A DNA stretch of 64,000 nt from Minisyncoccota bacterium (lineage in GTDB: Bacteria; Patescibacteriota; Microgenomatia; UBA1400; UBA12028): assembly GCA_003487265.1 (NCBI GenBank), contig DNEP01000013.1, forward strand, positions 125,736 through 189,735, given 5' to 3'. The notes beneath the pieces were generated by a model. That model worked only from the letters and a program-made list of their open reading frames with translations. It did no database searches and was not told the DNA's origin. Shown in pieces: positions 2 through 45,128 of this stretch; within the stretch, counting starts at the first letter, position 1, and each line of letters begins with the position of its first letter. A program made the position numbers and the translations under genes.

Positions 2-523
2 ACCCTATTTGTCCTAAAGAAACGCATTTTATTTGCTGTTTTGATCTCATTTTTTGCACTCACAACGTATCTGACAACATATCTGGGCGCCTTCTCGAAA
101 GATCTCACATTCATTCAATATCTTCAGTTTGAGCGATGGAGGCTTTCCTGGTTTATGGGCAAAACCGACAGTCCGAAAGGATATATCTTTTCGACAATCT
201 TGTTTGGAAAACATCCGCAATGGTGGGCAGATAAACAGGCATTTGTTTCGTACGATTCATATTCGATAATCTGGCCAATAGTCTTTATTGGATTTTTATG
301 CAATTGTGTGCGATTACTGCACGAGAGAAAACTCAACATACAAGCGCTCATGCACATTCAAGTTGCATTCTCACTTGCCTTTTTAAGTCTTGGAGCATCA
401 AACGATTTCTATCTTATTCCGCTCATGCCGATTTTCACGCTTTCAACTGCACAATTTACAGAATATCAATTTATGAAAAAAGGGTTACTTTCCACGCATA
501 AACCAGTCGACCGTCTTCCGTAA
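2..523 (+). CDS. Possible partial hydrophobic ORF running in from upstream of the window. First in-window start is TTG at 41 and the frame is open back to base 2. Overlaps 3' end of the galE-like gene.
   Basis: ORF track 41..523. No stop in frame from position 2. Hydrophobic stretches (IIWPIVFIGFLC, AFSLAFLSLGA). No recognisable family. Confidence 0.25.
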   Translation, partial: TLFVLKKRILFAVLISFFALTTYLTTYLGAFSKDLTFIQYLQFERWRLSWFMGKTDSPKGYIFSTILFGKHPQWWADKQAFVSYDSYSIIWPIVFIGFLCNCVRLLHERKLNIQALMHIQVAFSLAFLSLGASNDFYLIPLMPIFTLSTAQFTEYQFMKKGLLSTHKPVDRLP

Positions 524-1382
524 TCCTTCTTCAATTCCTACCTCTGCCTGCCACCCAAGCACTTTTCCTGCCTTTGAGGAATCAGCATACAGCTCCATTG
601 GATCACCTGGTCGCGGAGGGAAAAAGCGAATATTTGCTTGTTTTCCAAGGATCTTCTCTAACAGGTGAATAACATCGATCACCGAGGTCGAACGCTGTCC
701 AGAAAGATTCATATATTGATATCCATCCTGCAACTCCAACGCGAGAAGGTGTGCGCGAACAACGTCATCAATATAAATATAGTCGCGCAAATTCAATCCC
801 TCACCCCAAACCGTCACCTCTTTGTCTTGCATAATTTGAGAAATAAAACGGGGAATCGCGTGCGTTTCTGGTTCGTGATCCTCGCCCGGTCCGTAGAGAT
901 TAAAATATCGTAATGCCACACCAGTCATTCCATACGATGCAACATACGAGGACACAAGACCTTCCATCGCTAATTTTGTCATGCCATATGGATTGATTGG
1001 TATCGTTCGATCGTCTTCCTTGATTGGAACCCGAATCGGTTCGCCATAAACGGCCGCACTCGAACTAAACAAAAACTTTTTGACACCAGAACGACGCATC
1101 GCTTCCAACACCGAAAGTGTTCCCAAAATGTTATTTTTGATATATTTTTCTGGTTTTTCTACTGATTCTCCCGCCTCAATATAGCTTGCGAGATGAAAAA
1201 CGGCATCAACTTCATGAAAGTACGGTAAAATCGAGAATTGATCCAAAATGTCGACCTGAGTTGTAGGAAATAGTGCACACGGTTTCACATCCAAATTGTG
1301 CACACGATGACCTGCTTGCATCAACGCAACTCCCAATTTTTTCCCAAGAAATCCCGATCCACCAGTGAGCAAAATATTCATA
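485..1382 (-). CDS. NAD-dependent epimerase/dehydratase, UDP-glucose 4-epimerase (GalE)-like
   Basis: N-terminal Rossmann motif MNILLTGGSGFLG. Downstream YGMTKLAMEGL resembles the SDR YxxxK region. Start moved to the internal ATG at 1382, preceded by GGAG-like RBS (rc of ctcct at 1391..1395). Confidence 0.8.
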
Positions 1383-1426
1383 TCACATCTCCTATTTCTT
1401 TGTTCATTGTTGCACAAATTAAAAAC

Positions 1427-2557
1427 TCACGCCACCCAAACTCCGTGTAGGAAAAGTGCGGTGTTGAGAAATAAAAACGGAATCATTGCGATTATCGTTC
1501 CCACCCAAATCTTTGGATGTGTTACACGAAGACGCGCGAAAAAGAAAAAGATTGGAAAAACCGTCAAAACGTATCTTGGCATGCTTTGAAATGTTCCCGT
1601 AAGTGGTGGCAATAAAAAACAAAACCAAGAAAAAAGAAGATACTCGATCGACGTCCGATATCGTTTTGTGAAAGTCATGAAAAGCAAAATACACAACACT
1701 CCCATGGTAATCACAAACTCCTGAATTGTGGCGTACATCGCCCAAGAAAATGAAGAAGCATTCCAAATCATATTTAGGTAGCGGTATACTACTTGAGGAA
1801 AAAGAATAAGTGATTCTTGTCGTCCCGCATTGAAATCCGCTTGAACATGAAAAAAGAGCAAAGGATCTTGATAGCGATACCATAAGTAAGCCATATATGA
1901 TCCAATTCCCAAAAATCCAATCGCAATTTTTTTTGAGGAAGAAAAAAGTGAATGAAAATGACGTTTCGCGAGAGAAAGCCATGGAACCGAAAGCGCTGCG
2001 AGTATTCCAAAAACACCGACTAATCTTGTTGCCGATCCCAATGCAAGTATCAAACCCGCCAATAACCAGTTTTCTTTTTTTACAAGATAAAACGCGGAAA
2101 CCATCAGCAGAAAAAACAGCGATTCTGTATATACGGCGGCGAAAAAGAAGGCGGTGGGGAATACCAGAATTGGAACGAGATTAATCAACGAGTGATCCAT
2201 CTCTGTGTACTTTAATAAAATCGTCAGACCCACAATAAAAAACATTAAAGACATTACTTGTCCAAAAATCACTGGATTTATTGACAAACCCACCGCTACC
2301 TTCAATAAAAGCGGAAATAAAGGAAAGAACGCCTGAACAAGTCCTGTTCCAAAATATCCATTGGTTGCGATGGAAAGATAATGCACACCATCAAATCCAG
2401 ACCACGCATTCACAGATCGAGGTCCATACGTTGAAATTACCTCAACATATGGAAAACTCGGGTGATACTCACCTAAATATTGTCCCAGAAACTCGCCCGA
2501 CTGTAAAAACACCCGCCAAAGAACAACCATGCCAGCAACAATTAAAAGTTTACGCAT
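1427..2557 (-). CDS. Polytopic integral membrane protein, putative GT-C-type glycosyltransferase (DUF2029/GT87-like guess)
   Basis: About 10 predicted hydrophobic helices. Motif WSGFDGVHYLSIATNGY. Start at internal ATG 2557, 8-nt overlap with upstream stop. Alternative start at 2626. Confidence 0.55.
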   Translation of the reverse strand: MRKLLIVAGMVVLWRVFLQSGEFLGQYLGEYHPSFPYVEVISTYGPRSVNAWSGFDGVHYLSIATNGYFGTGLVQAFFPLFPLLLKVAVGLSINPVIFGQVMSLMFFIVGLTILLKYTEMDHSLINLVPILVFPTAFFFAAVYTESLFFLLMVSAFYLVKKENWLLAGLILALGSATRLVGVFGILAALSVPWLSLAKRHFHSLFSSSKKIAIGFLGIGSYMAYLWYRYQDPLLFFHVQADFNAGRQESLILFPQVVYRYLNMIWNASSFSWAMYATIQEFVITMGVLCILLFMTFTKRYRTSIEYLLFSWFCFLLPPLTGTFQSMPRYVLTVFPIFFFFARLRVTHPKIWVGTIIAMIPFLFLNTALFLHGVWVA

Positions 2558-4217
2558 ATTTTTTCTTAATACAAATTGAAAAGATTCCCACCCCAATAAC
2601 ACCAATGACAGAAAGACTATTTCCAATCAAACGTGCGGGCGTATTTTGAGTAAATCTCGATTCTATCTCATGTTCCCCTACTGGAACAGAAAATGAAATT
2701 AAGCCACCAGACTTTTGATGCTCAATTTCAATCTTTTTCCCATTTATTTTTGTTTCCCATCCATGAAAAAAGGCGGTTGGTTCGGTGACCAAACCATCTT
2801 CAAACATACGAACGGTATATCGATGGTAAGAACCATTCCATTTTTTTATTTCAAGGACTTCTCCACTTTTCAAAATTGGATATTGAGAACTCAGATCTTG
2901 GGGAACCTCGGTTAATGTTACAGGTTGATTTTCATGTTGAACGGTTGATGTTTCCGCAAAAGAAAAATAATACGCATTATTGTGATGTATCCGTGGTAAG
3001 TTTTGAATGCGAGTGAGCGAAAGGACCATTAAAAAACTCACCCCCAGAAGGAACAATTTCAAGTTTGAGGATGCTTTGTGATACACCATCACTTGCAAAG
3101 GAAGAAAACATAAAGCAAAAATGCCAATTAATCTCCAAGGAAACTGCGTGAACTGCAGTAGTGGAAACGCTTTCCAAATAAAAAGTGAAATGGGTTGCAT
3201 CAAAAAAAGAATCAACAGAGACAGTACAAAAATTGAAAAATACGGTTTTTTGTTGTTACGCATAAACACGAGCTGAGCAAAAAACAGGGGTATTGAAACG
3301 ATGGTCAGCAATCCAAGCGAAAACGAAAGTGCATCGACGGGGCCTTCATATGAAAACCCTCGATCAAATGGGGAAGAAAACAACTGAAGCATTGTGGGAA
3401 AATGACTTGAGTAAAATTGGGTAAGATTGACGTACTTCATCACCACAAACCCCTGTTCAAACATGGCGGGAATCCAAAAGAAACACGCGCTTAGTCCAGC
3501 AAGTAGATATGGAATTGCGTATAGGAAAAACGCATTCCATTTCGCTTGATACATTCGCACAATCCAATACGCAGCAAATAAAGGAACAAGATATAAAACA
3601 AAAATGTTATGCGATAAGAGGAGAGAAAGAACCATCGCGTGAACATACAAAAATCGTGCAACAGTTTGCTTTTTTAAGAAAAGATCAAATGAAAGAAAAA
3701 GATGAGGAAAAATCGCATATGCCATCATTTCGCCAATGACTCCGCGAGCAAAAAAGTCTGAGTATAAAAATGGAGCTAAAATAAAACTCAACACACCAAA
3801 ACTCGCAACTTCTTTTGTGGTGTGCTGTCGAAAGAAAACAAATACACCTCGAGCACCAAAAACAATTGACACAAACATCAATAATTTAAACGTGAACTCA
3901 ATAGAAATATCAAAACTTGTGAAAGGAATAGCTAAGATATTCGGCAGTGGATAGTTATAGTTAAATACAGGGTAACCGTATCCACCCATCATATACGGAG
4001 CAACGCGCGGAGGAAACTGCCCCTGTCGCAAAGCAAGATAGTACTGCGCAAATCGTGCGAGATGATTTTCTCCATCGTGTGTTTGAACTACTCCTTCACC
4101 CAACAGTGGAAGTAAAAAAGCTCGCAAACTTAGAAAAAGCATGATTGAAATCAAAACAAATCTTATTCTAAACATGACTTGTATACCTCTAAGGTTTCTA
4201 ACGCACACTTCTCCCAA
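2550..4217 (-). CDS. Large polytopic membrane protein, YfhO-like GT-C candidate (family A paralog 1)
   Basis: N-terminal motif HDGENHLARFAQYYLALRQGQFPPRVAPYMMGGYGYPVFNYNYPLP, shared with ORFs 24328..26061 and 29028..30680. Many TM segments. C-terminal soluble domain. Start may be the internal ATG near 4175. Confidence 0.6.
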   Translation of the reverse strand: MGEVCVRNLRGIQVMFRIRFVLISIMLFLSLRAFLLPLLGEGVVQTHDGENHLARFAQYYLALRQGQFPPRVAPYMMGGYGYPVFNYNYPLPNILAIPFTSFDISIEFTFKLLMFVSIVFGARGVFVFFRQHTTKEVASFGVLSFILAPFLYSDFFARGVIGEMMAYAIFPHLFLSFDLFLKKQTVARFLYVHAMVLSLLLSHNIFVLYLVPLFAAYWIVRMYQAKWNAFFLYAIPYLLAGLSACFFWIPAMFEQGFVVMKYVNLTQFYSSHFPTMLQLFSSPFDRGFSYEGPVDALSFSLGLLTIVSIPLFFAQLVFMRNNKKPYFSIFVLSLLILFLMQPISLFIWKAFPLLQFTQFPWRLIGIFALCFLPLQVMVYHKASSNLKLFLLGVSFLMVLSLTRIQNLPRIHHNNAYYFSFAETSTVQHENQPVTLTEVPQDLSSQYPILKSGEVLEIKKWNGSYHRYTVRMFEDGLVTEPTAFFHGWETKINGKKIEIEHQKSGGLISFSVPVGEHEIESRFTQNTPARLIGNSLSVIGVIGVGIFSICIKKKYA

Positions 4218-5191
4218 CTAAAGCGTTTGAGATTTTGTTTTCCTTGTTCGATAAGGCGTTGCTTTTGTGTAGGAGTAAAATCAAAGACGGTTTGAATCGC
4301 TCGTGCCAAATCATCTGCAGAAGGGGAATCCGCATAGACAACCGCGTCACCACCGACCTCTGGGAGCGATCCTCCGCTCGTACTCACGACAGGAACTTCG
4401 CACTGCATTGCATCAAGAACAGAAAGACCAAACCCTTCATACAGCGAAGGCTGAACATAACAACTCGCCATAGAATAGATTGAGGAAAGAATCGAAGCTG
4501 GTGCGTGGGGAATGTTTGACAAAATATGTACGCGATTTTCTAGATGCAGTCGTTGAATTTCTTCGTGAAGCGCGCGACCTTCAGGAATTGAGGTGTTCAT
4601 CAGCGATCGACCCACAAGCACAGCGTGCACTTCCTTTGACAGTAGCGCTACCGATCCTAGAAGTGAAAGGAGATTTTTATTGTAGTTCATGTCCCCAACA
4701 TACAGAATATAGGTACTAGGAAGGTAATATTTTTCTTGTATTTCTTTGAGTTGAGAATCATCTTGAATCTTTTGTAGCTCTGGATTTCCTGCTAGATATG
4801 TAACAACTATTTTTTCTTTTGGCACATGAAGATATTTTTGAATATCTCGTTTCGAACATTCTGAGTCAGTTAAAATCATTTTTACCGAGTTAAGCGAAAG
4901 ACGTTGAAAAATATGAGAAATATATCCACGTATTCCAACTGGATATGCATTTGGATAAACAAAAGGAATAACATCGTGAATTGTAACAACGGTTGGTTTC
5001 TTTTTTTGTAATGGTAGTGTGTGAAAAAAAAGATCAAAAAAAGGATAGTGAACAAGATCGGGATTGTTTTCTGAAACGCTCACATTGGGCATTTTTGAGA
5101 GTGCGTGTTGCAACTGCGTAGAATACATTCCAATACCGCGAAAGGTGTTGGCGTTTTTATTTCTATCATGCCCAAAAGAGACAGTAATCAT
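4163..5191 (-). CDS. Glycosyltransferase family 4 (GT-B, retaining)
   Basis: Classic GT4 C-terminal motif EGFGLSVLDAMQCEVPVVSTSGGSLPEVGGDAVVYAD. ATGA overlap with downstream GT2 at 5188..5191. Confidence 0.85.
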   Translation of the reverse strand: MITVSFGHDRNKNANTFRGIGMYSTQLQHALSKMPNVSVSENNPDLVHYPFFDLFFHTLPLQKKKPTVVTIHDVIPFVYPNAYPVGIRGYISHIFQRLSLNSVKMILTDSECSKRDIQKYLHVPKEKIVVTYLAGNPELQKIQDDSQLKEIQEKYYLPSTYILYVGDMNYNKNLLSLLGSVALLSKEVHAVLVGRSLMNTSIPEGRALHEEIQRLHLENRVHILSNIPHAPASILSSIYSMASCYVQPSLYEGFGLSVLDAMQCEVPVVSTSGGSLPEVGGDAVVYADSPSADDLARAIQTVFDFTPTQKQRLIEQGKQNLKRFSWEKCALETLEVYKSCLE

Positions 5192-5907
5192 GGTGATAGT
5201 GATGTTCCAAAAAACTTATGTCCCGCAAACTTCAAAATCAATCGGAGATGGCGGAATCCATCCCGATACGTATTTAATTTCGAGTACGATTTGTTATGTC
5301 TCTGCCCGTATGAAATGGGAATCTCTTTCATGCGAAGGCCGACTAGACTCGCTTTCATCAACATTTCTGAAGCGTACTCCATTCCCGTATACTGGAGATT
5401 CATTTTTTTGTATGCATCGCGCGTAAACATGCGAAGACCACAATGCCCATCACGAATAGGCGTCCAAAAAAAGATGTTGAGAAGTAGTGTAAGTACTGGT
5501 ACTCCAACATATCGATGAACCCAAGGCATCGCTAAAGGATCGATGTCCCCCATTAATCGATTACCGCTCACAAAATCATAACCGTTTTGAATATGGGAAT
5601 AAAATTGCGGAATCTCACGAAAATCATAGGTGTCATCCGAGTCGCCCATCACAAAAATAGAGCCTTTGGCTTCCTGAAACCCCGCCATTAACGCTGAACC
5701 ATACCCCTTTCTCTTCACTTCGATGACTCTCGCTCCGCTTTCTTTTGCAATTTGAATCGAACGATCGTGTGAACCGTTATCTGCAACAACCACCTCCCCC
5801 TCAACTCCGCAGGCTCGGATTCCCTCTAACGCCTTTTTAACAGAAGCTCCAAGTGTTTCCTCCTCATTTAAACAGGGCAGAACGACCGATATTGATGGTG
5901 TTTTCAT
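5188..5907 (-). CDS. Glycosyltransferase family 2, polyprenyl-phosphate sugar synthase (DPM1/GtrB-like)
   Basis: SVVLPCLNEEETLGASV...VVVADNGSHDRS...GDSDDTY. GT2 DXD-type motifs. ATGA overlaps on both sides. Confidence 0.85.
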   Translation of the reverse strand: MKTPSISVVLPCLNEEETLGASVKKALEGIRACGVEGEVVVADNGSHDRSIQIAKESGARVIEVKRKGYGSALMAGFQEAKGSIFVMGDSDDTYDFREIPQFYSHIQNGYDFVSGNRLMGDIDPLAMPWVHRYVGVPVLTLLLNIFFWTPIRDGHCGLRMFTRDAYKKMNLQYTGMEYASEMLMKASLVGLRMKEIPISYGQRHNKSYSKLNTYRDGFRHLRLILKFAGHKFFGTSLSP

Positions 5908-7211
5908 GATTCCTTTCGTATCATGTATCCTGACACAACGATGAGCATAGGCGCAAGATGTAAACTTAAACGCGAGATCGCTGCGGCGATAAAGGTCGCC
6001 TGTTCTTCAGGCGCAATGGTGAAAATAATCATATACACCACCAGTTGAACGACAAAAGCAGTGATCAGTGGGAAAAATCGCGAGCTCATCATCTGTTTGA
6101 CATGAAAGATGCACTGTAAAAAGAAAATATAGAAAGTAAGATTCCATTTTTGAATATTGCGAAACTCTTCTCGAAATGCGTGAACGCTGTACACGGCGTA
6201 CTCAATCCAAGGTCGCGAATACAGTTCTGAAAACTTGAAATACTGACTACTCATACCAACAACTTTTGTAAACAATATCCAAACAGTTGCAAAAAATGTT
6301 GGAATGATTAATCGTGCAAATTTCTTCGGCGCGAGCAAAAAACTCATCCCCGCTGTTGAAAGATACCACACCAACCCCTCAGATTTTGCCCAAGGCGCAC
6401 CCACCCAAAACCAATGTGCGAGTGTACGTTTCCCCTCCAACCAAAGCATCGTCCCCGTCGCGATCGAGATTCCAACAAAAACATCGGACGTTCCGACATA
6501 CTCGCCAGAAATATGCTCTCGAAAAATAAACAAGGAGCAAAGCAGTGCGCTGAAAAACAGCGCATATTTTTTGGGAGTTGTGCGAAAGAAAAAACCCACC
6601 ACCGCACAAATAAACGCAACTGAAAATCCAAACGTACTCACTTTGAGAGCCATCTCGTTGTGCGTTCCCGTAATGAGAAACGCATCCGCCCCCAACATGG
6701 GTAGAAAAAGAGGATACTCGGGGTGGTTGAATCGCTCAAATGAGTTTGGTTGGATCACTTGGTCATATGCCAATACATACGTTTTTGGTAACCAAAAAGC
6801 GATTGCGTCCCAAGCATAAATCGAGCGTGAATAACTTCTTGATCCAAACAAAAATAACGTAACAAAAAACGGAATCAATAAAAGGAGTACGAATGAAAAA
6901 CGAAAGTTATATATTCGAGAAACGTATCGAGTCCAGTTTTTTCTCAACAACACAAATGTCTGAGCAATTGCAAAAAGATGGAGAAGAATAAGTGAATAGA
7001 AGATAGAAAACTGAAAAAAAGCAAAAACTGTTTGAAGCAGGGTGGCATAGATCGCACCCAAAATGATCGGCAGTCCGAGTTTTTCAAAAAAAGAATTCGA
7101 GGTGAGCGTTTCTTTTAAAAGCCTTATTAACGCATATCCAACATTCCACCACATGAACCACGTCAAGATTCCTGCGAAAAACCAGTTCACAACATGTTCA
7201 AATAGATTCAT
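5904..7211 (-). CDS. Polytopic integral membrane protein (putative glycan polymerase/GT-C-like), function unknown
   Basis: 435 aa with more than 10 hydrophobic helices. Embedded in the GT operon with ATGA overlaps at both ends. Confidence 0.55.
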   Translation of the reverse strand: MNLFEHVVNWFFAGILTWFMWWNVGYALIRLLKETLTSNSFFEKLGLPIILGAIYATLLQTVFAFFQFSIFYSLILLHLFAIAQTFVLLRKNWTRYVSRIYNFRFSFVLLLLIPFFVTLFLFGSRSYSRSIYAWDAIAFWLPKTYVLAYDQVIQPNSFERFNHPEYPLFLPMLGADAFLITGTHNEMALKVSTFGFSVAFICAVVGFFFRTTPKKYALFFSALLCSLFIFREHISGEYVGTSDVFVGISIATGTMLWLEGKRTLAHWFWVGAPWAKSEGLVWYLSTAGMSFLLAPKKFARLIIPTFFATVWILFTKVVGMSSQYFKFSELYSRPWIEYAVYSVHAFREEFRNIQKWNLTFYIFFLQCIFHVKQMMSSRFFPLITAFVVQLVVYMIIFTIAPEEQATFIAAAISRLSLHLAPMLIVVSGYMIRKES

Positions 7212-7723
7212 TCATCGTCTTTCAAAAAATAAACAATTGTACGCGAGTCAATTACAGCAACTGAACGTGTTCTTGGATATGTGTGCAGTTCTTGATTAAA
7301 AACGAGTGCGTACTCCCCTTTTCGCGATGAGACGGTTGCGACCGGATCGATCCCCACAGGATATGCGTACATGCGTGCAAAATACATCTCTTTCGTCGAT
7401 AATCCTTGGATTTGAATCGTTGCTGATGCAGGGAGACTCCCTCGGATTTGATCGTGATACAGATGATAATAACTTCCCGACTCATGCTCGCGTTTGCTCA
7501 ACGCGGTATCTCGCAAAGATTTTACTGATTCCTCGTATAACCCAAGCTCTTCAAAAAATGATAGTCCGATAAGATAACTTGAACATATCATTGTAATCGT
7601 AAGAACACCGACATGAATTATGTTTCGATATTTGCGAAACACAAACGCAATACTGGCTATGACAAAAAGAGACAGGTAAAACCATCCCAGAAGTGGCAAA
7701 AGGGCTACCAGTTTTTCGTTCAC
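7208..7723 (-). CDS. Hypothetical membrane-anchored protein
   Basis: Two N-terminal TM helices then a soluble domain. GTG start at 7723 overlapping upstream stop (GTGA). No family recognised. Confidence 0.45.
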   Translation of the reverse strand: MNEKLVALLPLLGWFYLSLFVIASIAFVFRKYRNIIHVGVLTITMICSSYLIGLSFFEELGLYEESVKSLRDTALSKREHESGSYYHLYHDQIRGSLPASATIQIQGLSTKEMYFARMYAYPVGIDPVATVSSRKGEYALVFNQELHTYPRTRSVAVIDSRTIVYFLKDDE

Positions 7724-8592
7724 GTTTTATCCTTTTCAACATCTTTTTTGAGATGATGTTCAATCACCTTCATATACGCAATTGCGTAATGCAATCCCGA
7801 AAAAAGAGACCACACAAATCCTCGAAATCCATCAAGAAATCCTTTATGTCGAATAAACAATAAGAGAAAAACAACAACCGGTTTGACAAACATAAAATTC
7901 ACCGTGTTCAAGATTCCCAAACACATACCACTTTTAATCCAGTGTTGCGCCGTCTGCGTGGTGTAACGATCGGCGCGATCAAGATATCGAGCAAATGTGG
8001 GATCGCTCAGATGAAGAAGTGGCGCCGACAACCACGCAACAGCTCCATCAATCTGAATCTGTTCGTGCACTGATTTACATGGGAAATGTGCGTATTTTTT
8101 TTGAACCAATCGAATAACCCCGTCTGGATAAACACCCGCATGAAGAAGATATCCACCTAAGAAATAGTTTTTCCGAGGAATACAATATCCGCGAACCGGC
8201 CCATTTTGTTGAGAAACTTCTGGATCACTTTTTATCACCGCTTGAAAATGACGATCAAATAGTTTTTGATCTTTGTTTGAGATCGTAATCGTTTTTCCTG
8301 AAATTACATCTTTGATTTGTTGCACAAGGGCGGGAGTTACACGCTCATCTGCATCAAGCTGTAAAATCCAATCATTCGTACATGTTTCGAGTGCGAGTTG
8401 TTTCTGTTTATGAAACATTGGGTCATGGTTTGCGTGAACCACAATCGCATCAAATTTTTTTGCGATCTCGACGGTTCGATCATCGCTTCCCGAATCAACA
8501 ACCACAATTTCATCCGCAATCGCTTGTATCGAATGAAGACAATCACCAATGTTTTTTTCCTCGTTTCGAACAGCCAGAGCAACAGAAAGCAT
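7720..8592 (-). CDS. Glycosyltransferase family 2
   Basis: MLSVALAVRNEEKNIGDCL...VVVDSGSDDRT...LQLDADERVTP. C-terminal TM helices. Confidence 0.85.
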   Translation of the reverse strand: MLSVALAVRNEEKNIGDCLHSIQAIADEIVVVDSGSDDRTVEIAKKFDAIVVHANHDPMFHKQKQLALETCTNDWILQLDADERVTPALVQQIKDVISGKTITISNKDQKLFDRHFQAVIKSDPEVSQQNGPVRGYCIPRKNYFLGGYLLHAGVYPDGVIRLVQKKYAHFPCKSVHEQIQIDGAVAWLSAPLLHLSDPTFARYLDRADRYTTQTAQHWIKSGMCLGILNTVNFMFVKPVVVFLLLFIRHKGFLDGFRGFVWSLFSGLHYAIAYMKVIEHHLKKDVEKDKT

Positions 8593-8624
8593 GCCTCCAT
8601 TGTATCATCCTGTGATAGGATATA

Positions 8625-37071: not shown

Positions 37072-38258
37072 ATAATGCGACTATACACAAAATAGTTCAC
37101 CACCATCCCCACCGCCGTTGCCACGACCAACCAAAACATTCGAGAAAGTGTTTCTTGTCCTGTTAAAGAAGTTCCAAAACCTACAATCACAAACTGGATT
37201 GCAACCGCTCCAAACGAGGACAGATTAAACTGAAGGAATTTTGGAATCAAACGCAACGGATTCGTTTCTTTTCGATCTTTAAATGTCCACGCATTGTTCA
37301 AAATAAAGTTTGAAACAATCGCACACTCTGCTCCAAGCGCAGAAGATAATCCACTCACATTCACGAATGACCAACCAGTAAATGTGGCAAGGGTTGACGC
37401 AAACCCTCGAATCGCGTCTATTCTCGAAAAAATAAACAGTCCTAAAGTGTTCACTGAAAAACCAATCAGTCCAACAACACCAAACTTAAACACGCGCAAA
37501 TGAATGATTTCTTGAAAACGGGCCTGCAACACATAAATGAGTGTATTTTTCACGTACTCTGCTCCGAGTTTCGATTTGCCATATGTTCGATCAATAAAAT
37601 GAATTGGAACCTCGGAAATTGTAAATCCTGCGCGAATTGCTTTGTGCAAAAAACCAATCTGAAATGTGTATCCCGTAAATCGAGAAGATGACATCGCAAG
37701 ATGGACGGAATCGTACACACGTTTTGTGATCGCACGGAATCCCGTCGTCCAATCGCGAATGGCAAAAGAAAACATCACGATATTGATAAACAGATTTCCA
37801 ACTCCACTTAATAATTTTCGATGAACTCCCCAGTTGCTCGGAATAGATCCACCTTTCACATACCGTGATCCCAAAACCATATCAAAACCTTGATCGATTT
37901 TTTTCAAAAACTCAGGAATTTTCCTCATGTCGTGCGAAAAATCCGCGTCAAACTCGAAAACAACATCTGCTTTTAACGTGCGAAACGCAAACTCCATACC
38001 CGCGAGGTACGCGGAACCTAAACCCTCCTTTGTCGCTTTAGAAAGAAGATGCACATTTTCATATCTCGAAGCGAATGCACGCACAGTTTCACCGGTGCCG
38101 TCGGGAGAGGAATCATCAACAACGAGAACGCTCATGTTGTAATCTGAACAAGAATGAGCAAACTCCTCGCGTAGTGCGGGAATCATCTTTTTAATATTTT
38201 CTTGCTCATTATACGTTGGAATGATAACAACTACGTTCAATTTCGATGTTTTTTGCAT
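37050..38258 (-). CDS. Polyprenyl-phosphate mannose/hexose synthase, GT2 (DPM1/Ppm1-like) fused to C-terminal GtrA-like membrane domain
   Basis: VVVIIPTYNEQENIKKMIPAL...LVVDDSSPDGT...FEFDADFSHD is the DPM1 signature. C-terminal FKFGVVGLIGFSVNTLGLFIFS... makes 4 TM of GtrA type. Confidence 0.85.
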   Translation of the reverse strand: MQKTSKLNVVVIIPTYNEQENIKKMIPALREEFAHSCSDYNMSVLVVDDSSPDGTGETVRAFASRYENVHLLSKATKEGLGSAYLAGMEFAFRTLKADVVFEFDADFSHDMRKIPEFLKKIDQGFDMVLGSRYVKGGSIPSNWGVHRKLLSGVGNLFINIVMFSFAIRDWTTGFRAITKRVYDSVHLAMSSSRFTGYTFQIGFLHKAIRAGFTISEVPIHFIDRTYGKSKLGAEYVKNTLIYVLQARFQEIIHLRVFKFGVVGLIGFSVNTLGLFIFSRIDAIRGFASTLATFTGWSFVNVSGLSSALGAECAIVSNFILNNAWTFKDRKETNPLRLIPKFLQFNLSSFGAVAIQFVIVGFGTSLTGQETLSRMFWLVVATAVGMVVNYFVYSRIIWREKKT

Positions 38259-38268
38259 ATCACCTTTC

Positions 38269-39234
38269 TTATGCGTTCTTCTCTAATTCCAGTTCCGCTT
38301 TCACCATTTTCTCAACCAAATCTCTGAATGATGTTTTTGGCTTCCATCCAAGTTGCTTCATCGCTTTCGAAGCGTCGCCGATTAAATAATCCACCTCCGC
38401 CGGCCGATCGTAACGGACATCGTGTTCGTAGTACTGTTTCCAATCTTTCAGACCTGCAACATCGCATGCGATTTCCAAAAATTCTTGAACTGAATGAGAT
38501 TCGCCTGTTGCGATCACATAATCATCTGGCGTTGGCTGCTGTAACATGAGCCACATCGCTTCGACATAGTCCCCCGCATATCCCCAATCGCGTTTTGCGT
38601 TCAAGTTACCGAGTTTTACGGTTTGTTGTTTCCCATACGAAATACGTGCAACTGCATTCGCGATTTTTCTTGTGACGAACTCAAGACCTCGACGGGGAGA
38701 TTCGTGATTGAACAACATTCCCGAACACGCGTACATCCCATACGACTCTCGATAATTTACCGTGATCCAGTGTCCATACACCTTTGCAACTCCATACGGA
38801 GAACGTGGGTAAAAAGGAGTGGTTTCTTTTTGCGGTGTCTCTTGAACTTTTCCGAACATTTCCGAGCTCGAAGCTTGATAGATACGAGCGAGAGGGTGCG
38901 CGAGTCGGACCGCCTCCAACACACGCGTCACCCCTAACGCGGTAAACTCCCCCGTGAGCACAGGCTGTTCCCATGAAGCTTGAACAAAGCTCTGCGCGGC
39001 AAGATTGTACACTTCGTCGGGCTCGATTGATTTCACCGCATTTGTGATCGAATGCTGATCAATAAGATCACCACTAATCAACTCAATCTCGTGCACGATG
39101 TGTTTAATACGCTCGAAATTTTGCGTGCTCGTTCGACGAGTCAATCCAAACACCTGGTATCCTTTTGCCAACAACAGCTCGGCAAGATACGATCCATCTT
39201 GTCCTGTAATACCTGTTATGAGTGCTTTTTTCAT
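38269..39234 (-). CDS. gmd: GDP-mannose 4,6-dehydratase
   Basis: [30 protein letters not shown] is a canonical Gmd N-terminus. Start at ATG 39234 with AAAGGAG RBS 6 nt upstream. The ORF extension to 39393 is non-homologous. Confidence 0.9.
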
Positions 39235-39334
39235 GTGCTCCTTTATTCTATGCGTATCAACTATAATTTTTCTTTCTTTTCTATTGTAGTACGATCTTGA
39301 GTTGTTTGCGAGCGTGAGAGTTCTGTAAATGAAG

Positions 39335-42300
39335 TTAGGGGTGTGTAAGCGCCAATAATTGCGCATACTCCGACGATCGCACGATTTGTTCAATTACATC
39401 ACGATACGCATCTGCCAACTGAAGATGTGGAAGAGTTGCGCCAACATATCCTGCAGTTCCCACAGGATTTGAGGTTCGCGATCTCACCGTATGATCCAAC
39501 TCAACAAGCATTGAACTTAATGTGGTGACAATCTTCTCAAGTTGCCTTTCTTGCAGCGCATCTCCAATATCTTCTGGAACTGTGTATCTCAAAGTATCTG
39601 TAGTACCTTTTAATTCACGCTCTATCTCCTCTTTCGGAAAAATCGAGTTGCCGGATTTCTCAAGCACATGTAAAAATGCCAGGAGCACAGAAGTTGCAGC
39701 TTGATCTTCCAATATGAGTGCATCAAAAGAAAAGGACAATGTATCTTTCATATCTGGAAGTATTTTGTTGTTGCTCAACTCATCACAACGGTTTCGAATA
39801 AAATCAACCGTTGAACGCCAAACAATAGCGGAAAAATCATCTTTCATTTGGAAAAAAGATAAATTTTTCTCTGGCGTGGTGTTTGCGAATTTGTCTAGTT
39901 CGGAAAAAACGGCGGTAAGCCAACGCTTCATTTCCTCTTGAAACTTCTCAAGATTATGAAGATGTGTTTGGACTTTTTCTTCCTCTGACAAACTTGAAAG
40001 TATTGGTTTATGTGTTGAAAATGTGAAAATGTACTTCATCCATGGAATTTGAAGTAGCGATTCGGTAATCGCAGATTTTGAGTTCAGCCCAGTCGGCGTT
40101 CGCGCATCATTTTTCGCTTTTTCTACAAGATGTGAGTAAATTTGATCAACATGTAATCGTAAAATGTATTTTATCTGCTCAATACTTGCCGTCATATATT
40201 CTTGTTGTTGAGCGGTATTCTCTGCTGAATATTCTTTGATTTTTTTCAAAAAGAACCTATACAGCAACTGTCCTTTAAACTCATCCTCTGTTTTCAAAAC
40301 ATGAAAAAGCAAAAGTCGATCTTCAGGTGAACCGATAAACATCGCATGAATCATCTCAGCGATTTCGGCTTCATTTAACCTTTTATTAGTTTTGTTTTCC
40401 CACACTTCACGCGAAAGAGTGTAAAGTCGTCTGCGGACAATTTCCTGTGGTTTTGTCATTTCAAGTAACGAACGCATTTGCTGTACTTCTTCATCCGCAT
40501 GAGCATCCCAATCTCTTTCGATCATGCTCCATAAAGATGCGAAGTTTTCTGATTCTAATGCATTCGAATACGCTCGATTTTTATATGAAGAAAGCTCGTC
40601 TGATTGAACTGAGAGAAGATACATCCATTCTGCCGGCATTCCATTTCGAAAAACACGTCCAAGAATCTGTTCGAAATCTCGGCGAGATTGTGGAAGATCG
40701 AGCATAACCAGAAGTGCGCCGTTCGTGTTCAACAACTCTTGCGTTTGCCCAAACCACGACTGCATCTCTAAGAAATGTTCATCATTTGTAAAAACATCTC
40801 GCGCGAGTTGAAAAATGACGTGTGGAGGCAGTTCATTTTCAATAACATCCAACTGAAGCGTTTCTTGACAATACAGTCTCATTTTAGAAAGGAGAGACAT
40901 ACAGTTTGTTGGAAACGCCCGAACCAAGTCCACACCCCGTCCCATAACGGGTGTTCCCATTGTGATAAAATCTGGATTTGTTGCTTGCGTATATCTTTCC
41001 CGTTCCAATTTTTGCACAATTGTGCGCGAATTCACAACTTGAACTGTTGAGTTGAGAAACACATTGGGATTGTCCTTCTTTAATTCTTCAAGCATCTGAA
41101 GCTCATCAGTTGAACAAATAAAAATAATGGGTCGACGCGATCCATCTGAAAAACTCGACTGCGTTTGAATGATTTCTAAAATCCGTTTTTTCTTTGCTTC
41201 CGAATTCTGCAAAAAATATTCTTTTGGATTGTCTTTTGGAAGTGCAAAACAAACCGTAGGTTCAGTTGTATCGTTCATTGTAAACAAAAGACGATTCCTA
41301 TTTTCGTCAAACATAAAATGCTGTGGATATTGCGCTGGAAGCAACATCATTCTACGAAGAAACGACCTCGAAAATACATGATACTCATCAAGCAAAAATT
41401 GTTCCAACCCTTTCACGGTTCCTGTCGTTCCAGTAAACAAGACCGGTTTTTTGAGCATGTTTAGCGCATTTATTTCGTTGATCTGCGGACGTTCATCTAC
41501 AAGCACATAACTCATATCATGCTTTACCCGCAACGCAAGTTCTTGAAGAAACTCAAAGTTAACTTCCAATCTCGGACGACCCGTTTCATCGAGTGGAATA
41601 ATCTCCATATCGGTGCGCATGTACGCTTTGTTTTCTTTGAGAATGTACGCATTTAATGTTGTTTGAATAGCAACATTGTATCGAGAGATCGTTTGAAGAA
41701 ACAGGCGAATGGGCTCAGAAATTGGAGAGTTCATAAACAACGGTTCTTCCGAAAGTTGCAGAAAAAAATCGAACAGTTGGCTGGGATGAGAAAAATCGAG
41801 TTCACGTACGAGTTTTTCAACGGTCATGGGAAACAACACTTGAAATGTTTCCCTGTTTTTTCTTTGCTTCCGATATGATTTCACCGAATACGCTGCGCTT
41901 TCTTGACGCAGAAGTGACGCGAGCGCGTTGTGCATACCCTGAATCAATCCAAGTTTCTCAACAAGAATATCTTTTCCTGAATCTTGAAGGTAGAGATGTT
42001 CGTCATCGGGTTGTTCTTGATCATCTTGGAAATCACCTTTGTGAAAATTTTTGTTGAGCAAAAAAAGATTTGCCTGACCACCCTCTTCTTGCCTACACAC
42101 CGCGATTGTTTCTTGTATCACCTTTACAATGTTTTTTTTGTCTTGAAATGCGAGTTTTTCGCCCGCGATGATATAGCTCGTGTTTAGAGATTCAAGTAGT
42201 AACGCATCGAGTTCATCTGCCACAATAGAAAAAAGGTCAACGCCTTTTCGCCGATACTCCGATCGAAGCATTTGATGTGCTAGTGAACCGAGTGAAGAAT

Positions 42301-42940
42301 ATTTTATGTTTGAACGATTCAACGCTTGAAATAGTGGTTGAAATCGTTCTTGATCACGTTCCGCTAGCATATCGTTTGTAGTAGCAATCCACACATCTCG
42401 ACCAAAAACCCCATGGGCCAGTGCCACAAGTGGAAGCAGGACCGCTTTTCCTTCACCTGTTTTTATCTCAGCAACCGCACCGAAGATCATCGTGATCGCC
42501 TCGATAATCTGAAGTTTATATGGCATCACCCCAGTTTCACGTCGCATCATTTCACACGATATCGCAACAATCTCAACAATGTTGGACTCTAAAAATGTAA
42601 ATAAACGATTTCTTGATTCAGGGTCGTTTGCTTTCACTTGTTGTTCTTGTATAAAACTTTTTGCCTCGGCACAAATAGTTGAATACGCAAATTTAAGATT
42701 TTCTGATTCATTGTGTGAGAGTTTTTCATTTCGTAAAAAGACTTGTTCAGCAAGATGATGGACTTTATCTGGTGAAAGAAACGACTCTCTCTTATTTGAA
42801 TCGCCGATTGTGCCCAAGAATCTCTCGATGGGATTGGAAGAACCTTCAAGAAACGATTGCATATCGCGACTTTCTATAGGTGTTGCCACCACTGAAGAGT
42901 ACGCTGTAACGTTTCGTCGAGTGGGATTTGTGGTTGCCAC
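39335..42940 (-). CDS. Highly divergent SecA-family DEAD-motor ATPase (1201 aa; possibly 1175 aa from ATG 42862)
   Basis: SecA NBD1 motifs in order. [59 protein letters not shown] (compare E. coli SecA HFDVQLLGG...IAEMRTGEGKTL...GVHVVTVNDYLAQRD). Walker [24 protein letters not shown] (compare [21 protein letters not shown]). [15 protein letters not shown] (compare LAGMTGTADTEAFEF). [13 protein letters not shown] (compare TNMAGRGTDI). [16 protein letters not shown] (compare RIDNQLRGRSGRQG). Long N- and C-terminal extensions. Confidence 0.7.
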
Positions 42941-43815
42941 CCAAATTCTCGGTGAATTTTTGAAATGTCCGCAATTAATGTTGGAATTTCCGTTGCACGA
43001 AGCCGTTCTTCATCGCGAATGATCGGAATGTTTGCATTAGACAATGCCAGTAATTGATCGAGAATCTCGCTCATTTTGTGACCAACTCCCGATCCCACGT
43101 GGTAGACCTCACCTGTTTTTCCCTCACGAAGGAGAAGTTCATATGCGCGCACCACATCTTTCACATCCGAAAAGTCACGTACATCTGAAAGACTCCCAAC
43201 ATGAAGCGTGTCCTGCTCCCCACGTTCAATCTTCACAATTTGCTCACACATCGCGGGGACAAAAAAGGCTGAAGTTTGTCGTTCACCCGTGTGATTGAAA
43301 GGTCGAACACGGACAATGTCGAGTTTTTTACCAATGGAGTACACATAGGAAAGCATTTCTTGTGTTGCTTTTGAAACGGCATACGGATTAACCGGAAGAA
43401 ATGGTTGTGTTTCCACAATCGGGATTTGAGATGGGGGAACAACACCATATGAATCAGCCGAACCTATGGTGAGCAAGCGGACGTTGGGAAGCGCCGCTTC
43501 ACACGCTTGAAGGAGATTTAAATGAAGAACAATGTTGTTTGTGAGAATTTCTCGAGCTTGTTCGAAGCTTTTTCCAACAACGGCGATAGAAGCAAGATGG
43601 ATAATCGCATCAGGATGAAGCTCGCGAAGCATGTACTCAAGATCGCGATATTGAGTGAGATCAACAACGCGATATCGGTCTTCTGGTAAAAATTGATGCT
43701 CTATTGAAGGGATTGTTGTCGTGGTTCCCCAAACATCATCGTATCCTAATGCGTGTAGGTACGCGCACAAATGTGATCCAACAAATCCCGTTGCACCGGT
43801 GATGAGTAATCTCAT
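42874..43815 (-). CDS. rmd: GDP-4-keto-6-deoxy-D-mannose reductase (Rmd), GDP-D-rhamnose-forming
   Basis: MRLLITGATGFVGSHLCAYL, DAIIHLAS, NPYAVSKATQE, VRPFNHTGERQTSAFFV, VGSLSDVRDFSDVKDV. These motifs align with Pseudomonas Rmd (LFVTGLSGFVGKHL..., NPYAVSKLAAE, ARPFNHIGPGQ, VGDIDVSRDFLDVQDV). Confidence 0.8.
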   Translation of the reverse strand: MRLLITGATGFVGSHLCAYLHALGYDDVWGTTTTIPSIEHQFLPEDRYRVVDLTQYRDLEYMLRELHPDAIIHLASIAVVGKSFEQAREILTNNIVLHLNLLQACEAALPNVRLLTIGSADSYGVVPPSQIPIVETQPFLPVNPYAVSKATQEMLSYVYSIGKKLDIVRVRPFNHTGERQTSAFFVPAMCEQIVKIERGEQDTLHVGSLSDVRDFSDVKDVVRAYELLLREGKTGEVYHVGSGVGHKMSEILDQLLALSNANIPIIRDEERLRATEIPTLIADISKIHREFGWQPQIPLDETLQRTLQWWQHL

Positions 43816-45128
43816 ACTCCGATTCCCATGTAGCGAATACCTTGCGACTCCAACTGTGCACGCCTATCGAGGAATTGATTTCGAGCATCAATAAACAACG
43901 CTCCCTGTTTAACCTGTGTAGCAATTTCTTCGGGAGAAAGTTGAATAATCGCTTTCCATTCAATGAGAACAAACACACAATCAGCATCTTTTAATGCGTC
44001 TGGAGCGAGTTCAAAATACGCAACTGCGAGATCGGGATACCACGATTTAAAAACGGGTGTCGCCATGGGATCATATGCGCGAACTGTTGCACCTGCATGC
44101 AAGAGTTGAGGAATGATTTTTGTAGAAGGTGCTTCGCGAAGATCATCTGTATTGGGCTTAAACGCCAATCCAAGCACCGCGACCTGTTTCCCCTGCCACC
44201 CCCCAAGAATCTGCTCATATTTTCGCAGAAGCATGGAGATACGATCTTCGTTGAGTTGATCAATTGTTACGAGTAAATTGTCGGACTGACCGTGCGCTTT
44301 CGCGTATGCGGAAAGTTCTTTTACATCTTTTGGAAAACACGATCCACCATATCCCAAACCTGGATACCAATAGTGCGATCCAATGCGTTTGTCATATCCC
44401 ATTCCTTGAATAACTTCTTGAATATTTGCTCCGTTTTCCTCACAAAGATTCGCGATTTGATTAACAAAGGTTATTCGCGTGGCGAGATACGCATTTGACG
44501 CATATTTGCACATCTGCGCACTCTCTGGCTTCATGTGTAAGATTGGTGCACGAAATGGTTCATGCAACTCGGAAAGAACGCGTTTTGCAAACTCGGATTC
44601 AGAACCAATAACTACTCGATCTGGATGGAGTGTGTCATCGACCGCCGAACCTTCTTTCAAAAATTCTGGAAGTGAGGCAAGATGAAACTGTACATGTTTT
44701 GATATTTTTTGCAACTCTTGTTCAAGAAGTTCTCGAACTTTTTGATTTGTCCCCGGTGGCACGGTACTTTTAATCGCAATGATCACTTGGTCTTTTATAT
44801 ATGGTGCAAGGGACTGAATTGAAGCAAACACATATTTTAAATCAGCTTGACCGTCGGGAGCAGAGGGGGTTCCCACAGCGAGAATAATCACATCGGCCTG
44901 CGGGACTGACTCTGCATACGATGATGAAAAAGTAAGATTTCCCGATGTGATTCCTTGTTGCACGAGCTCTTTTAACTGTGGCTCAAAAAAAGGAATATTT
45001 CCTTGCGTAAGCGACTGGATTTTTTTCTCATCCACATCAAGACCGATGACTGTATTTCCAAATGAAGAAAACACTGCACTCGAAACAACTCCAACGAACC
45101 CTGTTCCTATCACAAGAATATTCATCAT
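43812..45128 (-). CDS. ugd: Nucleotide-sugar dehydrogenase, UDP-glucose 6-dehydrogenase family
   Basis: MNILVIGTGFVGVVSSAVFSSFGNTVIGLDVD is the N-terminal Rossmann. GYGGSCFPKDV is the catalytic Cys motif. Start at ATGATG 45128. ATGA overlap with rmd at 43812..43815. Confidence 0.85.
   Translation of the reverse strand: MMNILVIGTGFVGVVSSAVFSSFGNTVIGLDVDEKKIQSLTQGNIPFFEPQLKELVQQGITSGNLTFSSSYAESVPQADVIILAVGTPSAPDGQADLKYVFASIQSLAPYIKDQVIIAIKSTVPPGTNQKVRELLEQELQKISKHVQFHLASLPEFLKEGSAVDDTLHPDRVVIGSESEFAKRVLSELHEPFRAPILHMKPESAQMCKYASNAYLATRITFVNQIANLCEENGANIQEVIQGMGYDKRIGSHYWYPGLGYGGSCFPKDVKELSAYAKAHGQSDNLLVTIDQLNEDRISMLLRKYEQILGGWQGKQVAVLGLAFKPNTDDLREAPSTKIIPQLLHAGATVRAYDPMATPVFKSWYPDLAVAYFELAPDALKDADCVFVLIEWKAIIQLSPEEIATQVKQGALFIDARNQFLDRRAQLESQGIRYMGIGV

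Follow-up and report, generated by a model that had tools for sequence, protein, structure and literature searches.

A large, conserved glycosyltransferase island in a Microgenomates bacterium, a candidate assembly line for an envelope glycan

A 64,000-nucleotide stretch of DNA from a groundwater Minisyncoccota bacterium of the Microgenomatia (contig DNEP01000013.1 of assembly GCA_003487265.1, positions 125,736 to 189,735; the whole stretch is referred to as the window) was found to carry an island of close-packed glycan genes. Between positions 485 and 45212, the open reading frame (ORF) listing and Pfam scans gave 34 such genes, 32 of which belong to glycan metabolism: 17 complete membrane glycosyltransferases of the GT-C type, eight GT2 and one GT4 glycosyltransferase, a Wzx-type flippase, an S-adenosylmethionine (SAM)-dependent methyltransferase and four sugar-nucleotide enzymes (Table 1; the main ORFs of the window were numbered g01-g54). 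The remaining two are g08, whose small membrane product is conserved, and g33, which encodes a SecA-like ATPase. The density of one enzyme superfamily is far above chance expectation. With about even confidence, the locus is read here as a vertically inherited envelope-glycan assembly line of the candidate phyla radiation (CPR), the product of which would be a wall-linked or lipid-anchored heteropolysaccharide.

The island genes form three minus-strand runs (485-8592, 10297-19189 and 20751-45212), in which the junctions, taken from the gene calls of public contigs, are mostly overlaps of 1-28 bp or gaps of no more than 10 bp; "three tight operons", as a first-pass annotation of the sequence had put it, is a fair description. 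Wider junctions were seen between g03 and g02 (45 bp) and between g33 and g32 (∼100 bp), and an apparent 67-bp overlap occurs at the uncertain start of g33. The only interruptions between the runs are two GT-C genes on the plus strand, g10 and g18. GC content is uniform over the window (0.38-0.45), with island and flanks alike in composition, which argues that the island is native. The gene inventory of the first-pass annotation was reproduced by the ORF listing and by Pfam and NCBIfam scans; the SecA-like ATPase inside the island was absent from its list. The bounds it gave (485 to 45128) are too narrow: the dTDP-rhamnose genes rmlDCB lie beyond the right-hand end, and on the same contig the island goes on for at least 10 kb to the left of window position 1 (L010 10859-20897; its far end was not reached). 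This left extension contains a 375-aa PMT_2-like gene, two GT-C genes of family A2 and one of family A3 (see below), a synthase-like GT2 paired with DUF2304, a second GT2, a further epimerase and a 520-aa membrane protein that matched no family in the Pfam scan or in comparison with the window proteins. Because genes of the same kind fill these further 10 kb, the island is at least 55 kb long.

The GT-C-type proteins had been put at 14 or more, which understated their number: 17 are complete and one, g01, is cut by the left window edge (the full gene, seen on L010, is 99% identical to window ORF 41-523). Except for Wzx and the small g08, all polytopic proteins could be linked to a GT-C family, and crude hydropathy analysis predicted between five and 11 transmembrane (TM) helices across all 17. 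All-against-all BLASTP returned the paralog groups that the first-pass annotation had recognized, namely, six PMT_2 proteins (family A1: g10-g14 and g18), three PTPS_related proteins (A3: g04, g22 and g25), three PMT_2-like proteins (A2: g23, g26 and g30), one YfhO-like protein (g19), one PMT/ArnT-like protein (g27) and three others (g03, g07 and g28). Within these groups, divergence is large (paralogs are 23-30% identical over their full length; g10 and g18 share 45% over 172 aa by BLASTP). The score for PMT_2 was above 26.1 bits for g10, g12, g13, g14 and g30, and below this threshold for g11, g18 and g26. When the A1 profile was searched against PDB sequences, ArnT (5ezm, E=1e-3) was the sole match; profiles A2, A3, A4 and A5 gave none. 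By hhalign, A2 was linked to A1 (95%) and A3 to the YfhO-like family of g19 (99.3%, E=3e-20), and no sequence link was obtained between A1 and A3, A1 and A4, or A4 and A5, these families being joined only at the level of the fold or via YfhO. The MptA/MptB-family protein g28 weakly matched TIGR03459, a model for the mycobacterial alpha-1,6-mannosyltransferase, with E=1.2e-10 (40.9 bits against a cut-off of 439.4). Neither g03 nor g07 had any match in Pfam or NCBIfam, even at E≤10; a Wzy polymerase or ligase identity for the two was ruled out, because both models are GT-C folds and homologs of g03 match PIG-V. The annotation by profile models thus did not yield the refuting outcome named in the first-pass annotation, namely, that most of the polytopic proteins would prove not to be glycosyltransferases.

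Conserved acidic residues in the first extracytoplasmic loop, in the families other than A1 shortly after TM helix 1, support, as far as sequence conservation goes, that these GT-C enzymes are catalytically competent. In loop 1 of A1, position 33 is Asp or Glu in 125 of 126 sequences, and E34 and D50 are present in all 126. D46 and D50 are invariant in A2, D48 is invariant in A3, the triplet F55-D56-G57 is invariant in the g03 family, D30 is nearly invariant in the g19 family, and an SDEA motif follows TM helix 1 of g27. The g07 family has an invariant D135 after helix 4, a placement less certain than that of the acidic residues in the other families.

The eight GT2 genes had all been taken for lipid-sugar synthases. 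Their number, and the fusion of g31 to a C-terminal GtrA domain (PF04138 GtrA_DPMS_TM, 53.3 bits against a cut-off of 26.1), held up, but only g06, g21, g29 and g31 are synthase-like. These four are mutually related and matched synthase-type NCBIfam models with E values from 1e-13 to 4e-38, none of which comes near its equivalog cut-off. The enzymes of these models (AglJ, dolichyl-phosphate hexose transferase, PpgS, ArnC and PgfS) load a sugar onto polyprenyl phosphate. A fifth GT2 that is synthase-like by sequence lies to the left of the window. The other four GT2s (g09, g15, g16 and g17) are probably ordinary nucleotide-sugar enzymes rather than lipid-sugar synthases; the nearest NCBIfam models of the last three are EpsD/MftF-like (g15), SunS/mftF-like (g16) and TIGR01556 rhamnosyltransferase (g17). 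For the GT4 enzyme g05, the nearest models were glgA_Coryne, MSMEG_0565, BshA and GlcN-PG synthase, all below cut-off. Polyprenyl-phosphate-sugar donors, as proposed in the first-pass annotation, are thus supported at the family level by four synthase-like GT2s, one of them with a GtrA domain. It is these co-located GtrB/DPM1-like genes which suggest that the GT-C enzymes would use lipid-phosphate-linked donors.

Comparison with related genomes, which had been recommended at the outset, revealed a conserved gene order. The neighbourhoods of A1 and g07 homologs were compared in five other contigs: L092 (GCA_016211945.1; query protein labelled Ca. Pacebacteria), L093 (GCA_040960375.1), L094 (GCA_040006915.1; query protein labelled Ca. 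Woesebacteria), L095 (a metagenome scaffold, the proteins of which are named Ca. Buchananbacteria by NCBI) and L096 (another metagenome contig). In four of them (L092, L093, L095 and L096), the order g15-g14-g13-g12-g11-g09-g08-g07-g06-g05-g04-g03-g02 was kept up to the limit of each locus; in L094, it was kept in part only, with orthologs of g14 and g13 present. L093 adds orthologs of g20-g19-g17-g16 upstream of that of g15. Judged by sequence, the collinear core comprises ∼13-16 genes (g02-g17) with one-to-one orthologs, the score of the ortholog being, gene by gene, two- to threefold that of any paralog. The most conserved core gene is g06 (orthologs 66-70% identical), and A1 orthologs share 35-50% identity; g11, g12, g13 and g14 are each matched by a separate ortholog in four relatives, where the order is also the same. 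Orthologs of g02 (56-70%) occupy the same end of the cluster in L094-L096, and those of g08 (29-33%) lie between the g09 and g07 orthologs in L092, L093, L095 and L096. Further orthologs are those of g19 (31%) and the adjoining g20 (58%) in L093, and that of g24 (47%) in L094. Because one-to-one orthologs are collinear in distant relatives, the array is ancient and not the result of recent duplication. The paralogs split before the lineages did, and each was retained, as expected of enzymes that contribute different linkages to one fixed product. The genes g04 and g03 are fused into a single 943-aa gene in L096 (13135-15966) and also in protein P0176 (fusions of ∼930-945 aa), which suggests that the two GT-C enzymes act as a unit.

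The two plus-strand genes, g10 and g18, had no positional orthologs in L092, L093, L095 and L096 and, on this comparison, look like lineage-specific insertions. Their starts lie 35 bp (g10) and 64 bp (g18) from divergent neighbours, and at the 3′ side they run into convergent genes, g10 overlapping g11 by 35 bp and g18 overlapping g19 by 99 bp; read-through of the minus strand would be antisense to both. Two genes absent from the window were seen within the conserved order of the relatives: an unannotated protein of 681-685 aa between the g17 and g16 orthologs (L092 3546-5603, L093 3552-5597), and, where the orthologs of g16 and g15 adjoin, an additional GT4 gene between the two (L092 6438-7568, L093 6437-7555). 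Loci centred on the lon gene, which lies to the right of the island, had at most one GT-C gene each in 80 genomes, and the island is therefore not linked to Lon in relatives.

From the observed gene content, family and fold membership, loop motifs, operon packing and deep synteny, a pathway can be proposed, in which the identities of the donors, the order of action, the acceptor and the final attachment are inferred. The sugar-nucleotide enzymes g02, g32, g34, g35 and RmlDCB would provide precursors of Gal-type sugars, 6-deoxyhexoses, uronic acids or pentoses, and L-rhamnose. At the cytoplasmic face, the GT4 enzyme g05 and the GT2 enzymes g09, g15, g16 and g17 would assemble a short lipid-linked glycan, with the methyltransferase g20 possibly modifying a sugar, and Wzx (g24) would flip the product. 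In parallel, g06, g21, g29, g31 and the fifth GtrB/DPM1-like enzyme left of the window would charge polyprenyl phosphate with single sugars, and the GtrA domain of g31 would help move the polyprenyl-phosphate sugars to the outer face. There, the GT-C enzymes (no fewer than 17, of at least seven sequence families), each adding one particular residue or linkage, would build a highly branched heteroglycan, which the LytR-CpsA-Psr (LCP) enzyme g40, a candidate ligase of glycopolymers to peptidoglycan, would attach to peptidoglycan. A wall- or lipid-anchored polymer is favoured because Wzx, rml genes and an LCP ligase are present, and because the MptA/B-, PIG-V/PimE- and YfhO-like relatives extend lipoglycans or decorate teichoic acids: characterized MptA/B-like and PIG-V-like enzymes extend lipid-linked glycans, and YfhO-like enzymes glycosylate teichoic acids. 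Such a polymer, the most likely product, would have its analogues in the lipomannan and arabinogalactan of mycobacteria or in rhamnose wall polysaccharides that carry decorations.

Several observations weigh against this pathway. Among the ORFs of at least 120 aa in the 64-kb window and its 10-kb extension, no initiating phosphoglycosyltransferase (PF00953, PF02397), Wzy, chain-length regulator or O-antigen-ligase/Wzy_C protein was found; the locus thus lacks the first and last steps of a classical polysaccharide pathway, the genes for which could lie elsewhere in the genome. The adjacency of rml and LCP genes was seen in this genome only, the loci of the relatives stopping short of the corresponding region. 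The PTPS_related proteins are tied to GT-C through profiles only, and the NCBIfam matches all lie far below the equivalog cut-offs, too low to assign a sugar. Finally, A1, the largest family, has a protein O-mannosyltransferase (PMT)/GT39 signature including the DE motif, which is typical of protein O-mannosyltransferases, and because of this signature, protein acceptors are equally compatible with the data.

Protein O-glycosylation is the strongest rival, a serious one although less likely than the polymer. The GT39/PMT-like enzymes A1, A2 and g27 would move sugars from polyprenyl-phosphate donors directly onto Ser/Thr residues of secreted surface proteins (for example, type IV pilins, proteins of an S-layer or the LTD protein encoded nearby), and the other GT-Cs would elongate the protein-bound glycans outside the cell. 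PMT_2 or PMT Pfam matches in at least 10 proteins and the conserved loop-1 DE motif characteristic of PMTs speak for it, as does the SecA-like ATPase within the operon, and the lack of a phosphoglycosyltransferase and Wzy in the window and its extension is in keeping with a direct transfer of sugars to protein. In the CPR literature, there has been speculation on glycoproteins or an S-layer bearing glycans (PMC5220378) and on the glycosylation of pilins (PMC11623550). In contrast, the PMT_2/ArnT family also holds lipid and polysaccharide glycosyltransferases, ArnT being the only PDB match of A1; no oligosaccharyltransferase (STT3/PglB, PglL/Wzy_C) was found; and Wzx, four conventional GT2s, the GT4, rml and LCP indicate a lipid-linked oligosaccharide and a wall polymer, just as the MptA/B-, PIG-V- and YfhO-like relatives are generally known to act on glycolipids or teichoic acids. 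The wording "protein or cell-surface glycosylation system" in the first-pass annotation is, at the level of sequence, supported as the hedged statement it was.

Alternatively, the GT-Cs could merely decorate: enzymes of the GtrC/YfhO type would place single sugars on a polymer of other origin, for example, one that resembles teichoic acid, a lipoglycan or even peptidoglycan, and the locus would be a collection of several three-component modules of the Gtr kind. The GtrA domain, four GtrB-like GT2s and the YfhO/PTPS-like enzymes do fit the three-component scheme, no initiating or polymerizing enzyme is encoded in the window, and g10 and g18 resemble lineage-specific additions. Yet at least 17 distinct GT-Cs for four or five putative donor synthases far exceed any known decoration set, Wzx and five cytoplasmic glycosyltransferases imply that an oligosaccharide is built here too, and the strict gene order shared by deeply diverged lineages is more suggestive of a set product made in several steps than of optional additions, which renders decoration alone improbable. 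Least credible by far is a serotype or phage-evasion island, defence locus or mobile element arisen by recent duplication or horizontal transfer, for which a weak, overlapping "GT4-conflict" Pfam match on g05, a generic methyltransferase match of g20 to a PADLOC model and the two inverted GT-C insertions (g10 and g18) can be cited, but which is largely refuted by the synteny, each paralog having its own ortholog in kept order in four other patescibacterial contigs, and which also conflicts with the uniform GC content, the low identity among paralogs and the finding that the window shows neither integrase nor transposase. Defence systems as such were rejected, as PADLOC gave no relevant matches, and none for g33, g05, g19, g07, g03, g13 and g08.

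A broader proposal is offered as tentative and at well under even confidence: the ancient core of ∼13-16 genes, shared by Microgenomates and at least some Parcubacteria-labelled genomes, would build a lineage-defining envelope glycopolymer and be an independent counterpart of mycobacterial lipoglycans. This core consists of four ordered GT39-like enzymes, the CPR-restricted g07 family, a pair of PTPS/YfhO-like and PIG-V-like enzymes, one polyprenyl-phosphate-hexose synthase, and the GT2/GT4 primers. If this is true, the glycopolymer, as the outermost layer of epibiotic cells, could be central to host attachment and recognition; with an attached lifestyle, surface chemistry likely decides host range. 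The embedded SecA-like ATPase g33 might couple the system to the export of a dedicated substrate. Microgenomates genomes are typically ∼1 Mb in size, of which the island would then make up ∼5% or more, and this argues that the product is indispensable; given the order of the core in distant relatives, it is probably a surface glycan important to the whole group.

The abundance of glycosyltransferases in CPR bacteria has been remarked on before, and the structure and synthesis of their cell envelope have been called unclear (PMC5220378); glycosylation in Saccharibacteria has been called unexplored (PMC11623550). No such cluster was described in the literature on CPR or Patescibacteria retrieved with GT-C, ArnT, GT39 or mannosyltransferase, most subscription journals being outside the search, and no paper on the assembly or the strain was retrieved; "undescribed", the term used in the first-pass annotation, is consistent with this. 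The use of lipid-phosphate sugar donors by GT-C enzymes is known; new is that these enzymes form an unusually large array, old and conserved, in a phylum of which little is understood, and the advance would lie in biology and distribution, not in mechanism. The g07 family is a GT-C family missed by current domain libraries. The locus offers a conserved, testable gene set for a major surface glycan, and its core is a module for phylogenetic profiling.

Table 1. Genes of the island and its right-hand border, with the matches on which their assignment is based.
Gene	Position	Strand	Assignment	Basis
g01	1..523	+	GT-C-like; C-terminal part of a 375-aa polytopic protein	PMT_2 E=5e-5, 23.9 bits, below Pfam cut-off
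g02	485..1381	-	NAD-dependent sugar-nucleotide epimerase/dehydratase, GalE-like	Epimerase 214 bits
g03	1427..2557	-	PIG-V-like GT-C, 376 aa	Homologs carry PIG-V; model has a GT-C fold
g04	2550..4175	-	PTPS_related/YfhO-like GT-C, A3	PF10131 35.8 bits
g05	4163..5191	-	GT4 (GT-B), cytoplasmic	Glycos_transf_1 88 bits
g06	5188..5907	-	GT2, polyprenyl-phosphate hexose synthase-like	AglJ 1e-35, dolichyl-P hexose transferase 2e-31, also PpgS, ArnC
g07	5904..7211	-	GT-C fold; small family without Pfam model	Model
g08	7208..7723	-	171-aa protein, two N-terminal TM helices and soluble C-terminal part	
g09	7720..8592	-	GT2, conventional	Glycos_transf_2 63.7 bits; nearest NCBIfam mftF-like, SunS-like
g10	8628..10331	+	GT39/ArnT-like GT-C, A1	PMT_2 32 bits
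g11, g12, g13, g14	10297..16514	-	Four successive GT39/ArnT-like GT-C, A1	PMT_2 matches
g15, g16, g17	16501..19189	-	Three conventional GT2	Pfam GT2 matches
g18	19254..20849	+	GT39/ArnT-like GT-C, A1	Weak PMT_2 and PMT; BLASTP 45% to g10, related to g11-g14
g19	20751..23075	-	YfhO-like GT-C, 774 aa	No direct Pfam match; homologs P0004-P0014 carry PF09586 YfhO
g20	23085..23639	-	SAM-dependent methyltransferase	Methyltransf_23 64 bits
g21	23636..24331	-	GT2, polyprenyl-phosphate sugar synthase-like	AglJ 4e-38, also PgfS, dolichyl-P hexose transferase, ArnC, PpgS
g22	24328..26055	-	PTPS_related/YfhO-like GT-C, A3	BLASTP to g04 1.6e-55
g23	26055..27614	-	PMT_2-like GT-C, A2	BLASTP to g30 and g26
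g24	27611..29050	-	Wzx-type flippase	Polysacc_synt_3 158.7 bits
g25	29028..30680	-	PTPS_related/YfhO-like GT-C, A3	PTPS_related 48 bits, weak YfhO and PMT_2 cross-matches
g26	30682..32190	-	PMT_2-like GT-C, A2	PMT_2 23.8 bits; BLASTP to g30 1.7e-21
g27	32187..33677	-	PMT-family GT-C	PF02366 PMT 26.3 bits, above the 22.7 cut-off
g28	33674..34804	-	MptA/MptB-family GT-C	Precomputed PF26314 MptA_B_family
g29	34788..35555	-	GT2, polyprenyl-phosphate sugar synthase-like	PgfS 1e-16, ArnC 2e-14
g30	35545..37053	-	PMT_2-like GT-C, A2	PMT_2 39 bits
g31	37050..38258	-	GT2 synthase-like domain and C-terminal GtrA domain	Glycos_transf_2 90.5 bits; also PgfS, PpgS, ArnC
g32	38269..39234	-	GDP-mannose 4,6-dehydratase (Gmd)	GDP_Man_Dehyd 446.7 bits
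g33	39335..42940	-	Highly divergent SecA-like ATPase, 1201 aa	SecA_DEAD 87 bits, residues 62-208 only
g34	42874..43815	-	Short-chain dehydrogenase/reductase (SDR), sugar-nucleotide dehydratase/epimerase	GDP_Man_Dehyd 206 bits
g35	43812..45212	-	UDP-glucose/GDP-mannose dehydrogenase, Ugd-like	Three UDPG_MGDP_dh domains
g37-g39	45788..48248	-	rmlD, rmlC, rmlB; dTDP-L-rhamnose	RmlD_sub_bind 153 bits; dTDP_sugar_isom 68.8; GDP_Man_Dehyd/Epimerase 275
g40	48447..49622	-	LCP	LytR_cpsA_psr 78 bits; one N-terminal TM helix

Four genes of the table call for comment. The NCBIfam matches of g34 were mixed (dTDP-Glc dehydratase, GalE and LegB, all below cut-off). The first domain of g35 begins at ORF residue 30, and the true start is probably near 45128. 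For g08, no family match was obtained in Pfam, NCBIfam or PADLOC. The translation of g33 shows GEGKA, DELD and GRGVD motifs and is without a TM helix; its best PDB match was SecA2 (6t4h), with only ∼95 residues of nucleotide-binding domain 1 (NBD1) aligning to solved SecA/SecA2 structures (∼95-150 residues to any SecA or SecA2), and it missed all SecA and SecA2 equivalog cut-offs at least 10-fold (SecA2 models 37-57 bits versus cut-offs of 725-1100). An accessory-Sec (SecA2) identity was rejected, as these equivalog scores fail and no SecY-like or Asp genes were present in the window. Neither the loci compared nor a metagenome scan yielded a homolog of g33, which may be the only SecA of the cell, an accessory exporter for a substrate related to the glycan, or something else.

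The right flank of the island carries trmD (plus strand), rmlD-rmlC-rmlB, the LCP gene, a ZIP transporter gene, a trans-polyprenyl diphosphate synthase gene and lon, followed by cell-division and efflux genes. The trans-type polyprenyl diphosphate synthase (50252-51340, plus strand; 0.6 kb downstream of the LCP gene) is of interest because isoprenoid synthesis is commonly described as missing from CPR bacteria (PMC5220378), whereas the island needs polyprenyl carriers; the window encodes no cis-prenyltransferase (UppS). Two further minus-strand segments (54244-58264 and 60470-63347) encode an M23 peptidase, FtsX/FtsE, a release factor, the LTD-domain protein (with a TM helix at its C terminus) and an ABC transporter of the MacB type. 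The transporter comes with an HlyD-like adaptor, an odd partner for a bacterium presumed to have no outer membrane.

NCBI contig DNAZ01000009.1 (GCA_003484695.1) matches the window exactly, as do contigs of several other assemblies, and Microgenomates group bacterium GW2011_GWF2_45_18 has a protein identical to g13. Exact copies of the window proteins were present on 17-22 contigs from several independent assemblies (an NCBI UBA metagenome-assembled genome, JGI 3300025009 and 3300025117, ENA ERZ entries, and Logan SRR3309375 and SRR6488247); the longest contig recovered for the organism measures 0.42 Mb. The nearest Lon proteins (48-61% identity) are from Microgenomates and other Patescibacteria. 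The genome and close relatives were not found in a collection of representatives of 185,579 species (no match in the g13 scan; closest Lon 61%).

Among known systems, mycobacterial lipomannan, lipoarabinomannan and arabinogalactan synthesis (Ppm1, PimE, MptA/B/C, Pmt, Aft/Emb, Lcp1 and the rhamnosyl linker) shares with the island the many extracytoplasmic GT-Cs and the polyprenyl-phosphate donors, which in the island would be made by DPM1-like GT2s. As in the Corynebacterineae, there is an MptA/B-family protein (g28) and a PIG-V/PimE-like fold (g03), the GT4 could prime a lipid acceptor, and dTDP-rhamnose genes and an LCP ligase adjoin the island. None of the proteins reached the equivalog level for MptA/MptB, PimE or Emb/Aft, the modelled likeness to PimE, AftA and AftB being at the fold level only. 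In contrast to the Corynebacterineae, the island belongs to a CPR phylum, its enzymes are only remotely related (at fold level or below cut-off), the dominant family is GT39/ArnT-like, and neither an Emb/Aft (Arabinose_trans) match nor a decaprenyl-phospho-arabinose pathway nor a PimA/PI-synthase context was seen; moreover, one island of at least 55 kb in a small genome stands against genes scattered over 4.4 Mb.

Gtr-type systems (CsbB/GtcA/YfhO of Bacillus and Listeria, ArnC/ArnT, and PgfS/PgfM of Streptococcus) follow the same logic with the same component families, the candidate counterparts being the GtrB-like g06, g21, g29 and g31, the GtrA domain of g31, and the YfhO-like and ArnT-like GT-Cs. 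Known Gtr systems combine one synthase with one GT-C, which adds a single side sugar, whereas the island has four or five putative synthases for at least 17 GT-Cs, plus Wzx, five cytoplasmic glycosyltransferases and an order that is fixed across lineages. PMTs of family GT39 (eukaryotic PMT1-6 and actinobacterial Pmt) resemble the island enzymes in PMT/PMT_2 matches, the loop-1 DE motif and the GT-C fold, and the database label of the island proteins is "glycosyltransferase family 39 protein". Unlike PMTs, the island enzymes are without MIR domains, occur as 4-6 divergent tandem paralogs rather than as the one Pmt of bacteria, and have (A1) as their only PDB sequence match ArnT, a lipid A modifier.

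With Wzx/Wzy-type clusters for O-antigens, capsules and S-layer glycans, the island has in common Wzx, cytoplasmic GT2 and GT4 enzymes, rml and gmd genes, and the operon organization. It differs in that no phosphoglycosyltransferase, Wzy, Wzz or ligase was found in 74 kb and in that GT-Cs dominate, enzymes which, to our knowledge, are absent or rare in Wzx/Wzy clusters. Compared with all these systems, the island is unusual in its scale (at least 17 GT-Cs from at least seven families, served by four or five putative synthases) and in its fixed gene order.

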